The translations under genes and the position numbers were made by a program. DNA of 64,000 bases from Escherichia coli (GTDB lineage: Bacteria > Pseudomonadota > Gammaproteobacteria > Enterobacterales > Enterobacteriaceae). The DNA lies in assembly GCF_009931435.1 (NCBI RefSeq), contig NZ_CP043414.1. The stretch is one strand, 5' to 3'. This document shows, piece after piece, positions 27,761-38,212 of this stretch (its first letter is position 1; each line of letters starts with the position of its first letter). The notes under the pieces are model-generated. The model ran no database searches. It was not told where the DNA came from and saw only the letters and a program-made list of their open reading frames with translations.

Positions 27761-28079
27761 GCTTTCCCCATCTTACTTAGTCTGTCAGGCGTGGTCAGTC
27801 GCACCGGACACAATACATGATTCTGCGGTTGGCTATCGGCAAGCGTGGAGTTTAACTTGAGCATCATTAAGCACATCACAGTAACCGCTGATCATAGCAA
27901 ACCCTCTGAAGGCGGAATATCAGCAAATTCCTGGAGTTATTTCAACCTATTGACTTTTAATTTGATTTGAGGATGATTATTTAATAAGTTACATAAATGT
28001 AAATAACATGCAATTCACATTGCCGAAAGCGTGTCCGATATCGCACAATAACCGCTGATTTCACAGCATAGATCCCACG

Positions 28080-28640
28080 ATGAGCAAATCATTACAAAAA
28101 CCCACCATTCTGAATGTTGAAACTGTAGCCCGTTCACGACTGTTTACCGTCGAAAGCGTGGATCTGGAGTTCAGCAATGGCGTGCGGCGTGTTTATGAAC
28201 GAATGCGTCCAACCAACCGGGAAGCGGTGATGATTGTGCCGATTGTGGACGATCACCTGATCCTGATCCGCGAATACGCAGTGGGAACGGAATCCTACGA
28301 ATTAGGTTTTTCGAAAGGATTAATTGATCCGGGTGAAAGCGTCTACGAAGCCGCTAACCGCGAGCTAAAAGAAGAGGTTGGATTTGGTGCGAACGATCTG
28401 ACTTTTTTGAAGAAGCTCAGCATGGCACCGTCTTACTTTTCCAGCAAAATGAATATCGTAGTAGCGCAAGATCTCTACCCGGAATCGCTGGAAGGCGATG
28501 AGCCAGAGCCGCTACCACAGGTGCGCTGGCCGCTGGCGCATATGATGGATTTGCTGGAAGATCCTGACTTCAACGAAGCACGTAATGTCAGCGCACTGTT
28601 CCTCGTGCGCGAGTGGTTGAAGGAGCAGGGGCGAGTGTAA
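28080..28640 (+). CDS. nudE: ADP compounds hydrolase NudE (Nudix)
   Basis: 186 aa; Nudix box (GLIDPGESVYEAANRELKEEVG). Confidence 0.93.
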   Translation: MSKSLQKPTILNVETVARSRLFTVESVDLEFSNGVRRVYERMRPTNREAVMIVPIVDDHLILIREYAVGTESYELGFSKGLIDPGESVYEAANRELKEEVGFGANDLTFLKKLSMAPSYFSSKMNIVVAQDLYPESLEGDEPEPLPQVRWPLAHMMDLLEDPDFNEARNVSALFLVREWLKEQGRV

Positions 28641-28653
28641 ATGCGTGAAGTTT

Positions 28654-28683
28654 GCCTGATGCACAATGCTTATCAGGCCTGCG
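28654..28683. repeat. REP-like palindrome
   Basis: gcctgatgcacaatgcttatcaggcctgc. Confidence 0.5.
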
Positions 28684-28721
28684 CGGCTCCTGCAATATAT
28701 TGATTTTTATCGATATTTTCA

Positions 28722-28751
28722 GACGGATAACGTGTTCACGCCGTATCCGGT
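28722..28751. repeat. REP-like palindrome
   Basis: gacggataacgtgttcacgccgtatccggt, resembling the inverse orientation of canonical REP. Confidence 0.5.
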
Positions 28752-28781
28752 ATAAATAAAGTGACACTTTGTCAGCAAACA

Positions 28782-28807
28782 GAAAAAGGCGCCGAAGCGC
28801 CTTTTTA
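28782..28807. terminator. bidirectional terminator between nudE and mrcA
   Basis: aaaaaggcgc cgaa gcgccttttt; perfect stem with A-run and T-run on both sides. Confidence 0.75.
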
Positions 28808-28808
28808 A

Positions 28809-31361
28809 TCAGAACAATTCCTGTGCCTCGCCATTATCGATAATGGTCGTTCCCACCTCGTGCACCGCCTGTTGTGTCGGCTGTGTACCTTCGATGAAAT
28901 ACTCTTCGCGGCTGTTGCCACCATTAGCTAACTGCCCGGTGCTGCGATCGATATTCACCGTCACAATACCCGGCGGCGGCGTCAGCGGCTGTTCCGGCAC
29001 GCCTTCAAGAACGGCTTTCATATAAGCGTCCCATGCAGGCTGGGCACTCTTGGCACCGCCTTCGTAACCTGAGATCTGATCTTTAATCGCTCCGGAAGCC
29101 GTTGTATGACCGAGATTACGGCGGTGATCATCAAAGCCAATCCAAACCGAGGTCACAACGCCCGGACCGTAACCCGAGAACCACGCATCTTTCGAACTGT
29201 TAGTGGTACCCGTTTTTCCGCCGATATCATGCCGTTGTAAATCACGACCTGCTCGCCAGCCGGTACCCTGCCAGCCTGGCTCACCAAAAATATTGGTGTT
29301 CAGGGCGCTCTTAATCAGGAATGCCAGCGGAGTGTTGATGACGTGCGGTGCGTACTCCTGCGCGCCAGTCTTCGCGACTAACGCCTGATTCGCCTGCTCC
29401 AGCTGCGGCATTGGTACAGAAGCATTCTGCTGCTCGCGGGAGATAGCGACATCTTCAACATCGTTATTTTCCAGCACGTTCGATTTCTGCGTATCACCGT
29501 AAATCACCGGAATATCGCATTCCGGGCAGGCTACTTTCGGTTTCGCTTCGAAAATCACGCCGCCCTGATCGTTTTCAATTTTGCTGATAAACCACGGGTC
29601 CACCAGGAAGCCGCCGTTCGCCATTACCGCGTAGCCGCGCGCCACCTGCATTGGGGTGAAGGACGCTGAACCCAGCGCCAGCGATTCGGTGTGGACAATG
29701 TTTTGCGCCGGGAAGCCGAAGCGTTGCAGATATTCTGCAGCGTAGTCGACGCCCATCGCCCGCATTGCGCGTACCATCACCACGTTTTTCGACTGGCCCA
29801 GTCCCTGACGTAAGCGAATTGGACCGGCATACTGTGGTGGTGAGTTCTTCGGCTGCCAGTCAGAACCGGCACCTGCATCCCAGCGGGAAATTGGCACATC
29901 GTTCAACATACTTGCCAGCGTCAGACCTTTATCCATCGCCGCGGTGTAGAGGAACGGTTTGATGTTGGAACCTACCTGACGCAGTGCCTGGGTGGCGCGG
30001 TTAAACTTGCTCTGATTGAAATCAAAGCCACCGACCAGCGCCATAACGGCACCGTTTTGCGGATTGATCGACACCAGCGCCGAGTTCACTTCCGGCACTT
30101 GTGCCAGCCACCATGTATCGCCAACCTGACGAACCCAGATTTGCTGACCCGTTTGCAGAACATCGGTCACTTTACGCGGCGTCGGTCCCTGCTGAGTATC
30201 CGAACGGTAAGGACGCGCCCAGCGAACGCCTTCCATACTCAATGCGACGGTCGACCCGTCCGCCAGCATCGCCGTCGCTTCCTGAGGATTGGCGCTGGTG
30301 ACTGCGGCAGGCAGCAGCGGACCATAGGTCGGCAGCGCCTTCAGCGTATCGGTAATCTTGTTGTTATCCCACGCCGATTCGCCCACTTTCCACAGCACAT
30401 TTGCCGGGCCGCGATAGCCGTGGCGCATGTCGTAGTCCAGCACGTTATTACGTACTGCCTGCTGTGCGGCCTGCTGTACTTTGCGGGTGATGGTGGTGTA
30501 AATGCGATAACCGTCTTCATAGGCACTTTCGCCATAACGGTTATACATCTCCTGGCGCACCATTTCGCTCAGGTACGGCGCAGAGAAAGCAATCTCCGGC
30601 GCGTGATAGTTAGCGTTAATCGCCTCAGTGCGTGTCTGATCGAACTGTTGTTGGGTGATATACCCTTCATCCAGCATCCGCGACAGTACGACGTTACGCC
30701 GCGCGACGGCACGATCCATTGAGTAGAGCGGATTAAAGGTGGAAGGCGCTTTCGGCAGCCCGGCTATCACCGCCATTTCGTTCAGCGTCAGTTGGTCGAC
30801 CGTTTTACCGAAATAGACTTGTGCCGCAGCACCGACACCATAGGCGCGGTAACCGAGGTAAATCTTGTTCAGATAAAGCTCGAGGATCTCGTCTTTCGTC
30901 AGCAACTGTTCAATGCGAATCGCGAGGAAGACTTCCTTAATCTTACGCATCAGCGTGCGTTCTGGACTGAGGAAGAAGTTTCTCGCCAGCTGCTGGGTAA
31001 TGGTACTCGCCCCTTGTGACGCGTGGCCGGAGAACAGCGCCACACTTGCCGCACGGAAGATCCCCACCGGGTCAACGCCGTGATGCTCGTAGAAGCGGCT
31101 GTCTTCCGTCGCGATAAAGGCTTTCACCATCTCCGGCGGGATTTGATCCAACGTAACCGGAATACGACGTTTCTCACCGTATTGAGCAATCAGCTCGCCA
31201 TCGGCGCTGTAAATCTGCATCGGAATTTGCAGGCGAACATCTTTTAATGTCGCCACATCCGGCAGTTGTGGCTCGATGTAGCGGTATAGGCCATAAATCG
31301 AGCCTGCTCCCAGCAGAATGCAACAGACTGCAAGGATCAAAAAATACTTTACGAACTTCAC
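28809..31361 (-). CDS. mrcA: penicillin-binding protein 1A
   Basis: 850 aa from a GTG start (VKFVKYFLIL); ORF track shows an 8-codon upstream extension; glycosyltransferase and transpeptidase motifs. Confidence 0.93.
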   Translation of the reverse strand: MKFVKYFLILAVCCILLGAGSIYGLYRYIEPQLPDVATLKDVRLQIPMQIYSADGELIAQYGEKRRIPVTLDQIPPEMVKAFIATEDSRFYEHHGVDPVGIFRAASVALFSGHASQGASTITQQLARNFFLSPERTLMRKIKEVFLAIRIEQLLTKDEILELYLNKIYLGYRAYGVGAAAQVYFGKTVDQLTLNEMAVIAGLPKAPSTFNPLYSMDRAVARRNVVLSRMLDEGYITQQQFDQTRTEAINANYHAPEIAFSAPYLSEMVRQEMYNRYGESAYEDGYRIYTTITRKVQQAAQQAVRNNVLDYDMRHGYRGPANVLWKVGESAWDNNKITDTLKALPTYGPLLPAAVTSANPQEATAMLADGSTVALSMEGVRWARPYRSDTQQGPTPRKVTDVLQTGQQIWVRQVGDTWWLAQVPEVNSALVSINPQNGAVMALVGGFDFNQSKFNRATQALRQVGSNIKPFLYTAAMDKGLTLASMLNDVPISRWDAGAGSDWQPKNSPPQYAGPIRLRQGLGQSKNVVMVRAMRAMGVDYAAEYLQRFGFPAQNIVHTESLALGSASFTPMQVARGYAVMANGGFLVDPWFISKIENDQGGVIFEAKPKVACPECDIPVIYGDTQKSNVLENNDVEDVAISREQQNASVPMPQLEQANQALVAKTGAQEYAPHVINTPLAFLIKSALNTNIFGEPGWQGTGWRAGRDLQRHDIGGKTGTTNSSKDAWFSGYGPGVVTSVWIGFDDHRRNLGHTTASGAIKDQISGYEGGAKSAQPAWDAYMKAVLEGVPEQPLTPPPGIVTVNIDRSTGQLANGGNSREEYFIEGTQPTQQAVHEVGTTIIDNGEAQELF

Positions 31362-31480
31362 TGGAAATTTCCCATTTAGTTTCATTTGGGCAGTTTATAA
31401 ACAAACGCGCGGTAGTATAAAGGCAAGCCAGACGCATTGATATACCCGTCAGAGTGACGGGTGATAAGGAGATCATCACA

Positions 31481-32260
31481 ATGGCATTTAAGATCTGGCA
31501 AATTGGTTTGCATTTACAACAGCAAGAAGCGGTGGCGGTTGCGATCGTGCGGGGCGCAAAAGAATGCTTTTTGCAACGCTGGTGGCGGTTGCCGCTGGCG
31601 AACGACATAATCAAAGATGGGCGGATTGTCGATGCACAGCGGCTGGCTAAAACGTTGTTACCGTGGAGTCGCGAACTGCCGCAGCGTCATCACATTATGT
31701 TGGCGTTTCCCGCCAGTCGCACATTACAGCGGTCATTTCCGCGCCCGTCGATGTCCCTTGGTGAGCGGGAGCAAACGGCCTGGCTGTCCGGGACGATGGC
31801 CCGCGAGCTGGATATGGATCCGGACTCCCTGCGCTTCGATTACAGCGAAGACTCACTCAGTCCCGCCTATAACGTGACTGCCGCGCAAAGCAAAGAGCTG
31901 GCAACGCTGCTTACTTTGGCAGAAAGGTTGCGTGTTCATGTTAGTGCGATCACCCCGGATGCCAGTGCATTACAGCGATTCCTGCCTTTTTTACCTTCTC
32001 ATCAGCAATGTCTGGCCTGGCGTGATAACGAACAGTGGCTGTGGGCGACGCGCTATAGCTGGGGGCGCAAACTGGCGGTGGGGATGACTAGCGCGAAGGA
32101 GCTGGCGGCAGCGTTATCCGTTGATCCCGAAAGCGTCGCGCTATGTGGCGAAGGCGGATTTGACCCGTGGGAGGCGGTTTCTGTTCGTCAGCCGCCGCTA
32201 CCGCCGCCAGGTGGAGACTTTGCCATCGCGCTGGGGCTGGCGCTAGGGAAGGCGTACTGA
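31481..32260 (+). CDS. hofM: type IV pilus assembly protein HofM (PilM-like)
   Basis: 259 aa from MAFKIWQIG; first gene of the hofMNOPQ cluster divergent from mrcA. Confidence 0.88.
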   Translation: MAFKIWQIGLHLQQQEAVAVAIVRGAKECFLQRWWRLPLANDIIKDGRIVDAQRLAKTLLPWSRELPQRHHIMLAFPASRTLQRSFPRPSMSLGEREQTAWLSGTMARELDMDPDSLRFDYSEDSLSPAYNVTAAQSKELATLLTLAERLRVHVSAITPDASALQRFLPFLPSHQQCLAWRDNEQWLWATRYSWGRKLAVGMTSAKELAAALSVDPESVALCGEGGFDPWEAVSVRQPPLPPPGGDFAIALGLALGKAY

Positions 32261-32799
32261 TGAACCCGCCAATTAATTTTTTGCCCTGGCGACAGCAACG
32301 CCGGACCGCTTTTCTTCGTTTCTGGTTGCTGATGTTCGTTGCGCCTCTGCTGCTGACCGTCGGGATAACGCTAATATTGCGTCTGACAAGCAACGCCGAA
32401 GCTCGCGTAGATGCCGTTTTGCTTCAGGCGGAACAACAACTCGCCCACAGCTTACAAATAACGAAACCACGTTTGCTGGAGCGCCAACAAATTCGTGAGC
32501 AGCGTTTGCAAAGGCAGCGCCAGCGACAATTTACCCGTGACTGGCAATCTGCGCTGGAAGCACTGGCGGCGCTTTTACCCGAGCACGCCTGGCTGACAAC
32601 GATAAGCTGGCAGCAGGGAACGCTGGAGATCAAGGGGCTAACAACAAGCATTACCGCGTTAAACGCGCTGGAAACGTCACTCCGCCAGGATGCTTCTTTT
32701 CATCTCAATCAGCGGGGGGCCACGCAGCAGGATGCGCAGGGACGCTGGCAATTTGAGTATCAGTTAACAAGGAAGGTTAGCGATGGACATGCTCTTTGA
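32260..32799 (+). CDS. hofN: type IV pilus assembly protein HofN (PilN-like)
   Basis: 179 aa from MNPPINFLPWRQQRR; start overlaps hofM stop. Confidence 0.85.
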   Translation: MNPPINFLPWRQQRRTAFLRFWLLMFVAPLLLTVGITLILRLTSNAEARVDAVLLQAEQQLAHSLQITKPRLLERQQIREQRLQRQRQRQFTRDWQSALEALAALLPEHAWLTTISWQQGTLEIKGLTTSITALNALETSLRQDASFHLNQRGATQQDAQGRWQFEYQLTRKVSDGHAL

Positions 32800-33223
32800 C
32801 TGGTGGTTCGCCACATCACCCCGCCTCCGCCAGCTTTGCTGGGCATTCTGGTTGATGATGTTAGTTACGCTCATTTTTCTGTCATCGACACACCAGGAAG
32901 AGAGCGACGCATTAATTCGACTACGGGCAAGTCATTACCAGCAGTGGACCGCACTGTATCGCCAGGTAAACACCACTCCCTTCAGCGAGGAAAAAACGCA
33001 GCCCTTTTCGCCACTGGATTTTCAGTTATCCGGCGCGCAACTGGTTTACTGGCATCCATCCGCGCAGGGAGGTGAGTTGGCGTTGAAAACGCTGTGGGAA
33101 GCAGTGCCGTCGGCATTTACACGGCTGGCAGAGCGCAACGTCAGCGTGAGCCGTTTTTCGTTAAGCGTGGAAGGTGATGACCTTTTGTTCACGCTACAAC
33201 TGGAGACGCCGCATGAGGGTTAA
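32783..33223 (+). CDS. hofO: type IV pilus assembly protein HofO
   Basis: 146-aa ORF overlapping hofN. Confidence 0.85.
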   Translation: MDMLFDWWFATSPRLRQLCWAFWLMMLVTLIFLSSTHQEESDALIRLRASHYQQWTALYRQVNTTPFSEEKTQPFSPLDFQLSGAQLVYWHPSAQGGELALKTLWEAVPSAFTRLAERNVSVSRFSLSVEGDDLLFTLQLETPHEG

Positions 33224-33617
33224 ACGCTGGTTGTTAGCAGGCATTGCATTGTGCCTTTTAACCGGTATGCGTGACCCTTTTAAACCGCCGGAAGATCTAT
33301 GCCGGATTAGCGAACTTAGCCAGTGGCGCTATCAGGGGATGGTAGGGCGAGGCGAGCGCATCATCGGTGTAATAAAAGATGGGCAAAAAAAATGGCGACG
33401 GGTGCAGCAAAACGATGTGCTGGAAAACGGCTGGACGATCTTACAGCTAACGCCAGACGCACTAACGCTGGGAACCGGGACAAACTGCGAACCGCCACAA
33501 TGGTTGTGGCAACGGCAAGGAGATACAAATGAAGCAATGGATAGCCGCACTACTGTTGATGCTGATACCCGGCGTACAGGCGGCAAAGCCGCAAAAAGTG
33601 ACGCTGATGGTGGATGA
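33213..33617 (+). CDS. hofP: type IV pilus assembly lipoprotein HofP
   Basis: 134 aa from MRVKRWLLAGIALCLLTG (lipoprotein-like signal). Confidence 0.82.
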   Translation: MRVKRWLLAGIALCLLTGMRDPFKPPEDLCRISELSQWRYQGMVGRGERIIGVIKDGQKKWRRVQQNDVLENGWTILQLTPDALTLGTGTNCEPPQWLWQRQGDTNEAMDSRTTVDADTRRTGGKAAKSDADGG

Positions 33618-34767
33618 CGTTCCGGTAGCTCAGGTGTTGCAGGCGCTGGCTGAACAGGAGAAGTTGAACCTGGTGGTGTCGCCAGACGTCAGCGGTACGG
33701 TGTCGTTACATCTAACAGATGTTCCCTGGAAGCAAGTACTACAAACTGTAGTGAAAAGCGCCGGACTGATAACGCGTCAGGAGGGCAACATTCTCTCGGT
33801 GCATTCCGTTGCCTGGCAGAATGACAATATCGCCCGTCAGGAGGCGGAGCAGGCGCGGGCGCAGGCAAATCTGCCGCTGGAAAATCGCAGTATAACCCTG
33901 CAATACGCCGACGCGGGAGAACTGGCGAAAGCGGGGGAGAAGCTACTGAGTGCCAAAGGGAGTATGACCGTCGATAAACGCACCAATCGCCTTTTGCTGC
34001 GAGATAACAAAGCGGCGTTAAGCGCGCTTGAACAGTGGGTAGCGCAAATGGATCTGCCGGTCGGGCAGGTTGAGCTGTCGGCGCATATTGTCACCATTAA
34101 TGAAAAAAGTTTGCGTGAGTTAGGCGTGAAATGGACGTTGGCTGATGCGCAACAAACTGGTGGCGTTGGGCAAGTCACCACGCTTGGCAGCGACCTCTCC
34201 GTAGCGACGGCGACAACGCATGTCGGTTTTAACATTGGACGCATCAACGGACGTTTACTGGATCTTGAGCTTTCCGCGCTCGAACAAAAACAGCAGCTGG
34301 ATATTATCGCCAGCCCGCGTCTGCTGGCCTCACATCTTCAGCCTGCCAGCATTAAACAAGGGAGCGAAATTCCATATCAGGTTTCCAGCGGGGAAAGTGG
34401 CGCGACGTCGGTGGAATTTAAAGAGGCCGTCCTGGGGATGGAAGTTACGCCCACGGTGTTACAAAAAGGTCGCATCCGGCTGAAATTACACATCAGCCAG
34501 AACGTTCCGGGGCAGGTGCTACAGCAGGCCGATGGCGAAGTGCTGGCGATTGATAAGCAGGAGATCGAAACGCAGGTCGAGGTCAAAAGCGGAGAAACGT
34601 TGGCGCTGGGTGGCATTTTTACCCGTAAAAATAAATCGGGTCAGGATAGCGTACCGTTGCTTGGCGACATTCCCTGGTTCGGGCAATTATTTCGTCATGA
34701 CGGAAAAGAAGATGAACGACGCGAGTTAGTGGTGTTTATCACGCCACGACTGGTTTCCAGTGAGTAA
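33529..34767 (+). CDS. hofQ: secretin HofQ (PilQ/ComE-like)
   Basis: 412 aa; signal peptide; secretin C-terminus (GETLALGGIF ... VPLLGDIPWFGQLF). Confidence 0.92.
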   Translation: MKQWIAALLLMLIPGVQAAKPQKVTLMVDDVPVAQVLQALAEQEKLNLVVSPDVSGTVSLHLTDVPWKQVLQTVVKSAGLITRQEGNILSVHSVAWQNDNIARQEAEQARAQANLPLENRSITLQYADAGELAKAGEKLLSAKGSMTVDKRTNRLLLRDNKAALSALEQWVAQMDLPVGQVELSAHIVTINEKSLRELGVKWTLADAQQTGGVGQVTTLGSDLSVATATTHVGFNIGRINGRLLDLELSALEQKQQLDIIASPRLLASHLQPASIKQGSEIPYQVSSGESGATSVEFKEAVLGMEVTPTVLQKGRIRLKLHISQNVPGQVLQQADGEVLAIDKQEIETQVEVKSGETLALGGIFTRKNKSGQDSVPLLGDIPWFGQLFRHDGKEDERRELVVFITPRLVSSE

Positions 34768-35167
34768 ACAGCCGTAAAAGCGGTAATGTTTTTACGCTGA
34801 ACGTGTTTCATCTATTTGACGCGCGCAGGTATTTAGCATACAAGGAGTACCGATTTGAGAGTTGGTGCTCTTCGCTGCCTGCGTTCCATGATGATGATTT
34901 ATCATTCAGGCGGCATTTTGCTGTCTTTTTTACGCTAATCTTACCCGGTGATTTATCGCCAGAGCGGTGGTAGCAAGGCAGCGCGCTTGCAGCGACCAGA
35001 TATGCAGAGGGATGGGTGATTTATTCAGTTGCCAAACCCGCTGGAGTATTGAGATAATTTTCAGTCTGACTCTCGCAATATCTTATGAGGTTTCAGTTCA
35101 TGTCCTGCGGCGCTCTCTGAGCGAAGCGGGTTTATCATTAACGAATAGTCTTAGTAGTACCGAAAAA

Positions 35168-35689
35168 ATGGCAGAGAAACGCAATATCTTTCTGGTTGGG
35201 CCTATGGGTGCCGGAAAAAGCACTATTGGGCGCCAGTTAGCTCAACAACTCAATATGGAATTTTACGATTCCGATCAAGAGATTGAGAAACGAACCGGAG
35301 CTGATGTGGGCTGGGTTTTCGATTTAGAAGGCGAAGAAGGCTTCCGCGATCGCGAAGAAAAGGTCATCAATGAGTTGACCGAGAAACAGGGTATTGTGCT
35401 GGCTACTGGCGGCGGCTCTGTGAAATCCCGCGAAACGCGTAACCGTCTTTCCGCTCGTGGCGTTGTCGTTTATCTTGAAACGACCATCGAAAAGCAACTT
35501 GCACGCACGCAGCGTGATAAAAAACGCCCGTTGCTGCACGTTGAAACACCGCCGCGTGAAGTTCTGGAAGCGTTGGCCAATGAACGCAATCCGCTGTATG
35601 AAGAGATTGCCGACGTGACCATTCGTACTGATGATCAAAGCGCTAAAGTGGTCGCAAACCAGATTATTCACATGCTGGAAAGCAACTAA
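35168..35689 (+). CDS. aroK: shikimate kinase I
   Basis: 173 aa from [19 protein letters not shown] (Walker A); ORF track shows a long upstream in-frame extension that is not the gene. Confidence 0.95.
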
Positions 35690-35745
35690 TTCTGGCTTTA
35701 TATACACTCGTCTGCGGGTACAGTAATTAAGGTGGATGTCGCGTT

Positions 35746-36834
35746 ATGGAGAGGATTGTCGTTACTCTCGGGGAACGTAGTTACCCAATTACCATCGCAT
35801 CTGGTTTGTTTAATGAACCAGCTTCATTCTTACCGCTGAAATCGGGCGAGCAGGTTATGTTGGTCACCAACGAAACCCTGGCTCCTCTGTATCTCGATAA
35901 GGTCCGCGGCGTACTTGAACAGGCGGGTGTTAACGTCGATAGCGTTATCCTCCCTGACGGCGAGCAGTATAAAAGCCTGGCTGTACTCGATACCGTTTTT
36001 ACGGCGTTGTTACAAAAGCCGCATGGTCGCGATACTACGCTGGTGGCGCTTGGCGGCGGCGTAGTGGGCGATCTGACCGGCTTCGCGGCGGCGAGTTATC
36101 AGCGTGGTGTACGTTTCATTCAAGTCCCGACGACGTTACTGTCGCAGGTCGATTCCTCCGTTGGCGGCAAAACTGCGGTCAACCATCCCCTCGGTAAAAA
36201 CATGATTGGCGCGTTCTACCAGCCAGCTTCAGTGGTAGTGGATCTCGACTGTCTGAAAACGCTTCCCCCGCGTGAGTTAGCGTCGGGGCTGGCAGAAGTC
36301 ATCAAATACGGCATTATTCTTGACGGTGCGTTTTTTAACTGGCTGGAAGAGAATCTGGATGCGTTGTTGCGTCTGGACGGTCCGGCAATGGCGTACTGTA
36401 TTCGCCGTTGTTGTGAACTGAAGGCAGAAGTTGTCGCCGCCGACGAGCGCGAAACCGGGTTACGTGCTTTACTGAATCTGGGACACACCTTTGGTCATGC
36501 CATTGAAGCTGAAATGGGGTATGGCAATTGGTTACACGGTGAAGCGGTTGCTGCGGGTATGGTGATGGCGGCGCGGACGTCGGAACGTCTCGGGCAGTTT
36601 AGTTCTGCCGAAACGCAGCGTATTATAACCCTGCTCACGCGGGCTGGGTTACCGGTCAATGGGCCGCGCGAAATGTCCGCGCAGGCGTATTTACCGCATA
36701 TGCTGCGTGACAAGAAAGTCCTTGCGGGAGAGATGCGCTTAATTCTTCCGTTGGCAATTGGTAAGAGTGAAGTTCGCAGCGGCGTTTCGCACGAGCTTGT
36801 TCTTAATGCCATTGCCGATTGTCAATCAGCGTAA
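35746..36834 (+). CDS. aroB: 3-dehydroquinate synthase
   Basis: 362 aa recognised as AroB. Confidence 0.95.
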
Positions 36835-36925
36835 CAACAAGAAAGGTCAGGCCGCTTATCAAGCGGTCTATTAGCTTCAGGTTAATTGCAACGTGGTAAG
36901 CATTAACCTTTTAGTGGGGTGTTAA

Positions 36926-38212
36926 ATGGATGAATTCAAACCAGAAGACGAGCTGAAACCCGATCCCAGCGATCGTCGTACTGGTCGTTCTCGTCAATCT
37001 TCTGAACGTTCTGAGCGTACTGAACGTGGCGAACCGCAGATCAATTTTGATGATATTGAACTTGATGACACTGACGATCGCCGTCCGACTCGTGCGCAAA
37101 AAGAGCGCAATGAGGAACCGGAAATCGAAGAAGAAATTGACGAATCCGAAGATGAAACCGTGGATGAAGAGCGCGTAGAGCGTCGTCCGCGTAAGCGCAA
37201 AAAAGCAGCCAGTAAACCCGCTTCTCGTCAGTATATGATGATGGGCGTCGGCATTCTGGTTCTCCTGCTGTTGATCATCGGTATCGGTTCTGCGCTAAAA
37301 GCCCCCTCGACCTCTTCCAGCGATCAAACCGCGTCTGGCGAGAAGAGTATTGATCTTGCTGGCAATGCGACCGATCAGGCGAATGGCGTGCAGCCAGCGC
37401 CGGGAACCACGTCTGCGGAAAATACTCAGCAGGATGTTTCTCTGCCGCCGATCTCTTCTACGCCGACTCAAGGGCAAACCCCGGCGGCAACGGATGGTCA
37501 ACAACGTGTTGAAGTGCAGGGTGACCTGAACAATGCGCTGACCCAGCCACAAAATCAGCAACAGTTGAATAATGTGGCGGTCAATTCCACGTTGCCGACT
37601 GAACCCGCGACGGTCGCGCCTGTTCGCAATGGCAATGCATCGCGTGACACGGCGAAAACGCAAACCGCTGAACGTCCGGCCACTACGCGTCCAGCTCGCC
37701 AGCAGGCGGTGATTGAACCGAAAAAACCGCAAGCAACCGTGAAAACGGAACCGAAGCCGGTAGCACAGACGCCGAAGCGTACTGAACCAGCTGCTCCTGT
37801 GGCGAGCACGAAGGCACCGGCTGCGACCTCTACGTCAGCACCAAAAGAGACCGCAACTACGGCTCCAGTACAGACGGCATCCCCGGCGCAAACCACGGCA
37901 ACACCAGCCGCTGGAGGGAAGACCGCAGGTAATGTTGGTTCGTTGAAATCGGCACCGTCCAGCCATTACACTTTGCAGCTGAGCAGTTCCTCTAACTACG
38001 ACAACCTGAACGGTTGGGCGAAGAAAGAGAATCTGAAAAACTACGTTGTCTATGAAACGACGCGTAATGGTCAGCCGTGGTATGTCCTGGTTTCTGGCGT
38101 GTACGCTTCGAAAGAAGAGGCGAAAAAAGCGGTATCTACATTGCCAGCAGATGTCCAGGCCAAAAACCCGTGGGCGAAACCGCTGCGTCAGGTACAGGCC
38201 GATCTGAAGTAA
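36926..38212 (+). CDS. damX: cell division protein DamX (SPOR domain)
   Basis: 428 aa; acidic N-terminus, single TM, Pro/Thr/Ala/Gln-rich linker, C-terminal SPOR-like domain. Confidence 0.93.

Follow-up and report, generated by a model that had tools for sequence, protein, structure and literature searches.

The hofMNOPQ operon of Escherichia coli raises the question of why the reading frame of hofP continues for 89 nucleotides (nt) into hofQ. We addressed this question in a 64,000-nt stretch of the E. coli contig NZ_CP043414.1 (assembly GCF_009931435.1), hereafter the window, in which hofP spans 33213-33617 (134 amino acids, aa) and hofQ, which encodes a PilQ-type outer-membrane secretin, spans 33529-34767 (412 aa); all features described below lie on the plus strand unless stated otherwise. 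The initial annotation of this DNA had taken the long overlap to imply either tight translational coupling or an internal hofQ start. Our analyses instead make it likely that the overlap results from the passive read-on of hofP across the signal-peptide segment of hofQ, with hofQ initiating independently.

The hofQ start codon lies within hofP

Position 33529 is the first start codon of the hofQ open reading frame (ORF) after the upstream in-frame stop, so a hofQ start further upstream is impossible. The Shine-Dalgarno sequence AAGGAG (33517-33522) lies 6 nt before this ATG, within HofP codons R101-Q102-G103-D104, and the ATG opens a signal-peptide coding region (33529-33582; MKQWIAALLLMLIPGVQA), with cleavage predicted before AKPQ. 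To compare these features, we used 80 loci fetched from different Enterobacteriaceae species, in each of which the five genes were located. Counts are given per feature (78 loci for the hofP/hofQ overlap, 81 for the start features, and 75 for recoding), and five distant loci come in addition. With a Shine-Dalgarno sequence defined as 4 nt or more matching AGGAGG at a spacing of 3-13, one was present before hofQ in 72 of the 81 loci. HofQ residues 2-6 contained lysine or arginine in 79/81 loci, and a signal-peptide hydrophobic core (a strongly hydrophobic 9-residue stretch within residues 2-26) was found in all 81. HofQ length was consistent across genera, being 409-415 aa in most loci in which both ends were found, with a maximum of 424 aa. 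By the criteria of Palleja et al. (2008), hofQ has no 5' extension compared with its orthologs, and independent evidence supports its start.

If HofQ were truly initiated at a downstream in-frame start, the overlap would be an annotation artefact of the class that Palleja et al. (2008) describe as "5'-extension of the downstream gene", and in-frame ATGs do occur at HofQ codons 11 (33559) and 27 (33607). However, a protein translated from Met11 or Met27 would lack the basic N-terminal region of the signal peptide, which an outer-membrane secretin needs, together with most or all of its hydrophobic core, and neither methionine keeps its position in other genera. The placement of AAGGAG, the recurrence of the signal peptide and Shine-Dalgarno match across loci, and the steady length of HofQ also stand against an artefact, which we regard as very improbable. 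The internal hofQ start offered by the initial annotation is thus rejected, since the Shine-Dalgarno sequence, the signal peptide and the conservation of both contradict it. Judged from the sequence, hofQ starts at 33529, and the two reading frames genuinely overlap.

The overlap may have arisen by read-on across the signal-peptide segment

The overlap (33529-33617, 89 nt) comprises hofQ codons 1-30 read in the hofP frame, with each hofP codon formed from the third base of a hofQ codon and the first two bases of the following one. For a stop to occur in the hofP frame, a hofQ codon must end in T and the codon after it must begin with AA, AG or GA (encoding Lys, Asn, Ser/Arg or Asp/Glu). The hydrophobic codons of the signal peptide cannot yield such a stop because they carry T or C at position 2. 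Direct reading of the sequence identified only three potential stop sites within hofQ codons 1-30, namely Ala19-Lys20, Val28-Asp29 and Asp29-Asp30. The hofP stop TGA (33615-33617) consists of the T of GAT (D29) and the GA of GAC (D30) in hofQ, and in loci in which Asp29 is encoded by GAC the HofP tail continues, giving overlaps of 122-140 nt. At the upstream edge, conserved HofP ends with the motif C-E-P-x-x-W-x-W-x-R-[Q/E]-G, and its R-Q-G codons (cgg caa gga g) are the hofQ Shine-Dalgarno sequence.

These features suggest how the overlap could have formed. The end of the PilP-like domain of HofP (W-x-R-Q/E-G) would be encoded by the bases of the hofQ Shine-Dalgarno sequence with no stop following it, and the hofP frame does run open for 29 codons beyond the hofQ start. 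Since the hydrophobic codons are free of stops, the first likely hofP stop would fall at the conserved V-D-D of HofQ, where the N0 domain starts and GAT|GAC yields TGA. The resulting 29-residue HofP tail would be a disordered, unconstrained by-product. Such a mechanism would be neutral, depending only on a signal-peptide-coding segment being stop-free in one of two alternative frames. Because this frame is stop-free, an upstream gene abutting the start of a secreted protein's gene could gain a long overlap and a junk tail without selection.

The long overlap is shared across the HofP family

The hofP/hofQ overlap measured 89 nt in 37 of the 78 Enterobacteriaceae loci and 59-140 nt in 70 of them, and the 59-140 nt overlaps were always congruent to 2 modulo 3, i.e., in the same relative frame. 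HofP is 124-138 aa long in most loci and is not 3'-extended relative to its orthologs, as the corresponding test of Palleja et al. (2008) requires for a genuine overlap. The other junctions were also recurrent, with a hofM/hofN overlap of 1 nt in 32 loci and 4 nt in 29 (61/80 together), a hofN/hofO overlap of 17 nt in 50/79 loci, and a hofO/hofP overlap of 11 nt in 66 loci.

An exhaustive profile search returned only 184 HofP-family cluster representatives. Five distant HofP-family loci, whose HofQ proteins are 50-58% identical to that of the window, had hofP/hofQ overlaps of 62, 44, 74, 98 and 86 nt, all in the same frame, and three of the five (L084, L087 and L088) also shared the mrcA ... 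aroK-aroB synteny. A word-indexed protein search with HofP was uninformative on deep history, recovering only close relatives and many shortened fragments. Taken together, the distribution of the overlap indicates that it is an ancestral trait of the HofP family rather than an oddity of K-12.

A minority of loci depart from this arrangement, among them a disrupted Escherichia albertii locus (described below). In L042-L044 (Phytobacter and one Kosakonia-labelled locus), the hofP/hofQ overlap is only 38 nt, and in L048 and L050 (a Leclercia sp. and a metagenome-assembled genome labelled 'Proteobacteria'), HofP ends at the hofQ start in a 4-nt ATGA overlap in a different frame. In the loci with the 38-nt and the 4-nt overlap, hofO, hofP and hofQ (as well as hofM and hofN where present) keep ortholog-consistent ORF lengths. 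The Phytobacter and Leclercia-type loci are thus natural variants for comparing whether the tail or the overlap matters.

The description of the 89-nt overlap as unusually long in the initial annotation holds when set against published surveys. The supplementary K-12 table of Huber et al. (2023) lists the hofM/hofN, hofN/hofO, hofO/hofP and hofP/hofQ pairs at -1, -17, -11 and -89, respectively, and the axis of their E. coli plot begins at -90 (PMC10666635). Canonical PilP/secretin gene pairs across prokaryotes have a median spacing of +13 nt (first quartile -1, third quartile +29, n = 281; PMC10666635 Table S4), in contrast with the overlaps of ~44-140 nt in the HofP family. Palleja et al. (2008) considered no co-directional overlap longer than 60 base pairs (bp) to be real, their longest genuine case being holD/rimI (32-56 bp); hofP/hofQ was absent from their supplementary lists under any identifier that we tried. 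Like holD/rimI, hofP/hofQ is a same-strand overlap of two bona fide genes of ortholog-consistent length that is conserved in enterobacteria. In contrast with holD/rimI, it exceeds the 60-bp limit at 89 nt, and its two frames encode a signal peptide (hofQ) and a disordered tail (hofP). hofP/hofQ is thus a well-supported and deeply conserved co-directional overlap of more than 60 nt, and it contradicts a published annotation rule under which it would be marked as erroneous; annotators should keep the hofP and hofQ models unchanged.

Selection on the overlap and on the HofP tail

To determine what overlap the HofQ protein sequence alone would produce, we recoded hofQ synonymously 2000 times per locus in the 75 loci, using the codon usage of each locus, and noted where the hofP frame first met a stop. 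The simulated median overlap for the window was 89 nt, and the observed overlap equalled the simulated median in 59% of the 75 loci. The probability that a simulated overlap was at least as long as the observed one fell below 0.05 in 0/75 loci, such that no avoidance of stops beyond that predicted from the HofQ sequence was detected. Thus, the length of the overlap is as the HofQ protein sequence predicts. Similarly, we found no separate selective constraint on both frames within the overlap, the property tested by the criteria of Palleja et al. (2008).

HofP itself consists of a signal-peptide-like N-terminus, a PilP-like beta-sandwich core (residues ~30-103), and a 29-residue tail (residues 106-134) that is predicted to be disordered. 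In an AlphaFold2 model built from 79 orthologues, the predicted local distance difference test score (pLDDT) was ~90 at residues 30-101, with the last strand at 96-101, and below 50 at residues 110-134. The tail could nevertheless be functional in its own right, for example as a flexible linker or as a contact to HofQ or peptidoglycan, and could thereby keep the frame open. It is found in most genera, the Pfam HofP model (PF10748, 266 bits) reaches its end, and a few of its positions are conserved (G-x-K and a terminal GG). However, these positions overlie residues conserved in HofQ, which is read in the alternative frame, and the mean top-residue frequency of the tail (residues 104-134) was 0.43 compared to 0.58 for the core. 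The composition of the tail is of low complexity, with 69% G/A/R/D/S/K and 2.7% L/I/F/Y/W/C. When the window was compared with Escherichia whittamii (L004), 5/29 residues differed in the tail and 10/105 in the core, so that the tail changed ~2-fold faster.

The variability of hofQ third positions, which are the first positions of hofP codons, also bears on a functional tail. In 33 ungapped loci, their entropy was 1.16 in the signal-peptide part of the overlap, near the 1.20-1.24 measured outside it, and 0.92 in codons 19-29, partly because this set of loci was chosen for the 89-nt stop. Given also that the tail is shortened or absent in Phytobacter, Leclercia and others, we find a functional tail rather improbable. 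Recoding, conservation, predicted disorder, and the lineages with a short tail or none indicate that the HofP tail is an unconstrained by-product.

Translation of hofQ and conservation of the frame

Termination-reinitiation requires overlaps or gaps of a few nucleotides, typically -4 or -1, and measured coupling collapses within ~20 nt (PMC10666635). Since the hofP stop lies 89 nt past the hofQ start, outside this range, termination-reinitiation coupling between hofP and hofQ is unlikely, whereas the 1-nt hofM/hofN overlap falls within the range. The tight translational coupling that the initial annotation had proposed is therefore implausible in the form of termination-reinitiation. The 1-, 17- and 11-nt junctions are ordinary short overlaps compatible with translational coupling.

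Within the operon, a full AAGGAG is found only before hofM (31466-31471) and hofQ. In the minimum-free-energy fold of 33470-33630, both the hofQ Shine-Dalgarno sequence and the ATG were unpaired; this fold was not significantly more stable than those of shuffled sequences (z = -1.7), which gives no support for a structure that would need unmasking. hofQ probably initiates independently at its own strong ribosome-binding site, which is predicted to be unstructured.

The long overlap could still be kept by selection as a form of translational control if hofP ribosomes crossing the hofQ site either coupled HofQ synthesis to their passage, through unfolding or local delivery, or throttled it through occlusion. 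HofP and HofQ are expected partners, as the N0 domain of secretins is bound by the HR domains of PilP and GspC, an interaction that underlies the fold matches to 3oss_C and 4av2. Moreover, subunits of one complex are over-represented among the products of overlapping gene pairs (PMC10666635). Arguing against such control, the HofQ protein sequence by itself accounts for the length of the overlap, and this length ranges between 38 and 140 nt, with only 4 nt in Leclercia, in loci whose ORFs are of ortholog-consistent length; furthermore, the hofQ ribosome-binding site is predicted to need no unmasking, and the measured range of termination-reinitiation coupling is exceeded. On balance, we consider selection for translational control unlikely.

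Several observations do, however, count against passive read-on. The same frame and a long overlap are conserved in 75/78 Enterobacteriaceae loci and in 5/5 distant loci (80/83), and the frame is kept even though HofP identity falls to 30-45% within the Enterobacteriaceae and HofQ identity to ~50% in the distant loci. In the 2-3 codons that separate the Shine-Dalgarno sequence from the ATG, stops were absent from every locus in which both genes are intact. A single 1-nt indel would yield the common ATGA arrangement, yet this arrangement is rare here. In addition, the loci are phylogenetically related, and the counts are not independent events. The retention of the frame, the absence of stops and the rarity of the ATGA arrangement could reflect selection for ribosome passage or for the tail. 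Alternatively, the frame may have been retained by inertia: the ribosome-binding site restricts changes in the spacer of 7-10 nt, a frameshift would in half of the possible cases join HofP and HofQ into a single fusion, and the loci share ancestry.

The proposition that covers both forms of selection, namely that an overlap of ~44-140 nt in one frame down to ~50% HofQ identity is selectively maintained, either because ribosome passage sets the HofP:HofQ ratio or because the tail is functional, likewise seems doubtful to us. If true, hofP/hofQ would surpass in length all other conserved same-strand overlaps between bona fide cellular genes of enterobacteria and would clearly break the 60-bp rule.

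The hof genes are functional and match the K-12 operon

The five hof genes form a single co-directional block in the order M-N-O-P-Q, flanked by mrcA (minus strand, ending at 31361) on one side and aroK-aroB on the other. hofM spans 31481-32260 (259 aa) and overlaps hofN (32260-32799, 179 aa) by 1 nt in TGATG; hofN overlaps hofO (32783-33223, 146 aa) by 17 nt, and hofO overlaps hofP by 11 nt. Each of the five ORFs ends in a stop codon and contains no internal stop. The five intact genes and the overlaps of 1, 17, 11 and 89 nt reported in the initial annotation were reproduced by ORF listing and translation, and they agree with the RefSeq models. When compared with annotated homologues, all five gene models and all four overlaps were the same in the RefSeq records of K-12 MG1655 (b3395-b3391) and of a strain 100% identical across the region.

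We identify the region as the chromosomal hofMNOPQ (yrfDCBA-hofQ) operon of E. coli, which has already been annotated and tabulated. It shares with the K-12 operon (yrfD-yrfC-yrfB-yrfA-hofQ) the same genes, order, lengths (259/179/146/134/412 aa), flanks and overlaps, differing from it by allelic divergence only. The hof region was present in 5425 of 5426 complete E. coli genomes, and the 161-nt hofP/hofQ junction was at least 99% identical in 4850/5426 records. Both hofP and hofQ were annotated over the junction in 30/30 records sampled down the ranking. Taking one best match per record, the whole operon (31386-34800) was at least 99% identical in only 18/5426 records, the rest being 95-99% identical.

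Pairwise ratios of nonsynonymous to synonymous substitution rates (dN/dS) were 0.03-0.26 for all five genes in all Escherichia comparisons except hofO versus K-12 (1.83). The five hof genes are functional and under purifying selection, and are not chance or decaying ORFs. Decay of the operon in E. coli, with the overlap reflecting the recent loss of a stop codon in a pseudogene, might be considered given the low or undetectable transcription of the yrfD-hofQ operon under laboratory conditions (Cameron and Redfield 2006, PMC1635313) and the many truncated HofP variants in databases. In addition, hof genes are disrupted in two of the loci that we examined: Escherichia albertii NBRC 107761 (L006), in which hofO and hofP are reduced to 69 and 33 aa, respectively, with hofQ intact at 97% identity, and Citrobacter koseri NCTC10786 (L035), in which hofM is truncated and no hofQ start was located. 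These two loci possibly represent lineage-specific pseudogenisation of the operon. Against decay in E. coli stand the five intact genes and their low dN/dS, the retention of the region in nearly all E. coli genomes, the ancestral rather than recent nature of the overlap, and the finding that hofQ::kan abolishes Sxy-dependent natural transformation (Sinha and Redfield 2012, PMC3330819). We therefore judge decay extremely unlikely, and a recent stop-codon loss specific to E. coli is ruled out by the conservation of the overlap in Enterobacteriaceae and in the distant loci.

Sxy over-expression raises yrfD expression 16-fold in a CRP-dependent manner, and the yrfD promoter has two weak CRP-S sites, one of them at -246 from the start codon (PMC1635313). 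A passage in PMC9273947 credits the role of DNA as a nutrient to Palchevskiy and Finkel (2006). The remark in the initial annotation that this apparatus is thought to allow the use of DNA as a nutrient and is normally poorly expressed agrees with this literature (PMC1635313, PMC3330819 and PMC9273947).

The published yrfDF and yrfDR primers used for electrophoretic mobility shift assays (PMC1635313) match the window exactly at 31205-31224 and 31309-31330, delimiting an upstream regulatory fragment of hofM (yrfD) at 31205-31330 that lies in the 5' coding part of mrcA and is reported to contain the two weak CRP-S sites. No match to the CRP-S pattern TGCGA-N6-TCGCA with up to 2 mismatches was found between mrcA and hofM or in this published fragment. 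By eye, TGCAT-N6-TTGCA at 31216-31231 can be read as a candidate CRP-S site with 3 mismatches. The fragment falls wholly within the first ~55 codons of mrcA, so hofM regulation and mrcA coding share sequence. The minus-strand mrcA ORF reaches an ATG at 31385 (858 aa), while the RefSeq start is at 31361 (850 aa).

Relation of the hof products to PilMNOPQ

HofQ scored 853 bits against the NCBIfam HofQ model NF007851 (cutoff 598) and 447 bits against the PilQ model TIGR02515 (cutoff 284), and it contains the Pfam domains STN, Secretin_N and Secretin above cutoff, giving it both the N0/STN and the secretin parts of such a protein. Its best match among solved structures was Vibrio cholerae PilQ (6w6m, E-value 5e-75), and PilQ alignments begin at HofQ residue 21-23. 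HofP, whose gene directly precedes that of the secretin, is a PilP-like beta-sandwich (HR) protein, with the PilP structures 3jc8_Pa, 2ivw, 2lc4 and 2y4y and the GspC HR domain 3oss_C as its top Foldseek matches. The products of hofP and hofQ belong to different Pfam families, and the two are not one fragmented gene. HofN belongs to the PilN family of bitopic proteins (PF05137, 37.9 bits against a cutoff of 22.8), and HofO, the putative PilO counterpart, carries the Pfam HofO domain (PF25319, 89 bits).

For HofM, all sequence-level matches in Pfam and NCBIfam were below thresholds, and a sequence search found no meaningful match among solved structures. Since sequence searches were uninformative, we used fold comparison. 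An AlphaFold2 model built from 65 orthologues (pLDDT 91) matched Pseudomonas aeruginosa PilM (E-value 8.5e-14) and Thermus thermophilus PilM (2ych, template modelling score 0.71), followed by the cytoplasmic domains of GspL/EpsL and by FtsA. By its modelled fold, HofM is a PilM-like actin-fold cytoplasmic protein, ~100 aa shorter than PilM.

hofMNOPQ encodes the PilMNOPQ-type inner-membrane platform and outer-membrane secretin of a cryptic, Sxy/CRP-induced type IV pilus or DNA-uptake machine. The PilMNOPQ systems of Pseudomonas, Myxococcus, Neisseria and Vibrio and the comABCDE genes of Haemophilus share the five-gene order M-N-O-P-Q, with HofQ corresponding to PilQ, the HofP core to PilP, HofM to PilM, and HofN carrying a PilN domain. 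The Haemophilus com genes are also regulated, like hof, by Sxy and CRP-S (PMC1635313). In contrast with PilQ (571-901 aa), HofQ is only 412 aa long and is without the long AMIN-containing N-terminus.

Allelic variation, flanking sequences and record labels

No differences from K-12 were found in the mrcA-hofM intergenic region or in the 89-nt overlap (100% identity). Nucleotide identity to K-12 is ~98% for mrcA, hofM and hofQ, 96.8% for hofO and only 94.4% for hofN, a pattern suggesting a mosaic or an unusually divergent hofN-hofO allele. hofO of the window differs from that of K-12 at 14 nucleotides, 12 of them non-synonymous (12 amino-acid changes) and all in the N-terminal half (residues 2-89), leaving the C-terminal HofO domain unchanged. 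At 9 of the 14 sites the window has A, and hofO dN/dS against other Escherichia species was 0.21-0.26.

Downstream of hofQ, a terminator-like hairpin with a T-run at 34771-34794, 4 nt past the hofQ stop, is a weak candidate for the operon terminator from a consensus scan. The 400-nt gap between hofQ and aroK (34768-35167) contains two terminator-like hairpins (34771-34784 and 34908-34926) and a sigma-70-like promoter match (10 of 12) at 35029-35058 upstream of aroK; none of these is annotated in the K-12 record. The number of sites found in the promoter and terminator scan of the region was not above the shuffled expectation. An Rfam search of 28000-38000 at E-values up to 1 gave only sub-threshold rsmX-like and asponA-like matches, neither of them inside the operon.

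Several Enterobacteriaceae-type hof records carry unexpected organism labels. L064 is labelled 'Chryseobacterium sp. 18061' yet its HofQ is ~70% identical to that of E. coli, and L033 is labelled 'Escherichia sp. ESNIH1' yet its HofQ is only 74% identical. The HofP proteins P0057 and P0033 carry the names of Acinetobacter baumannii (71% identity) and Providencia rettgeri (79%). Mislabelling or contamination is the probable origin of these unlikely labels.

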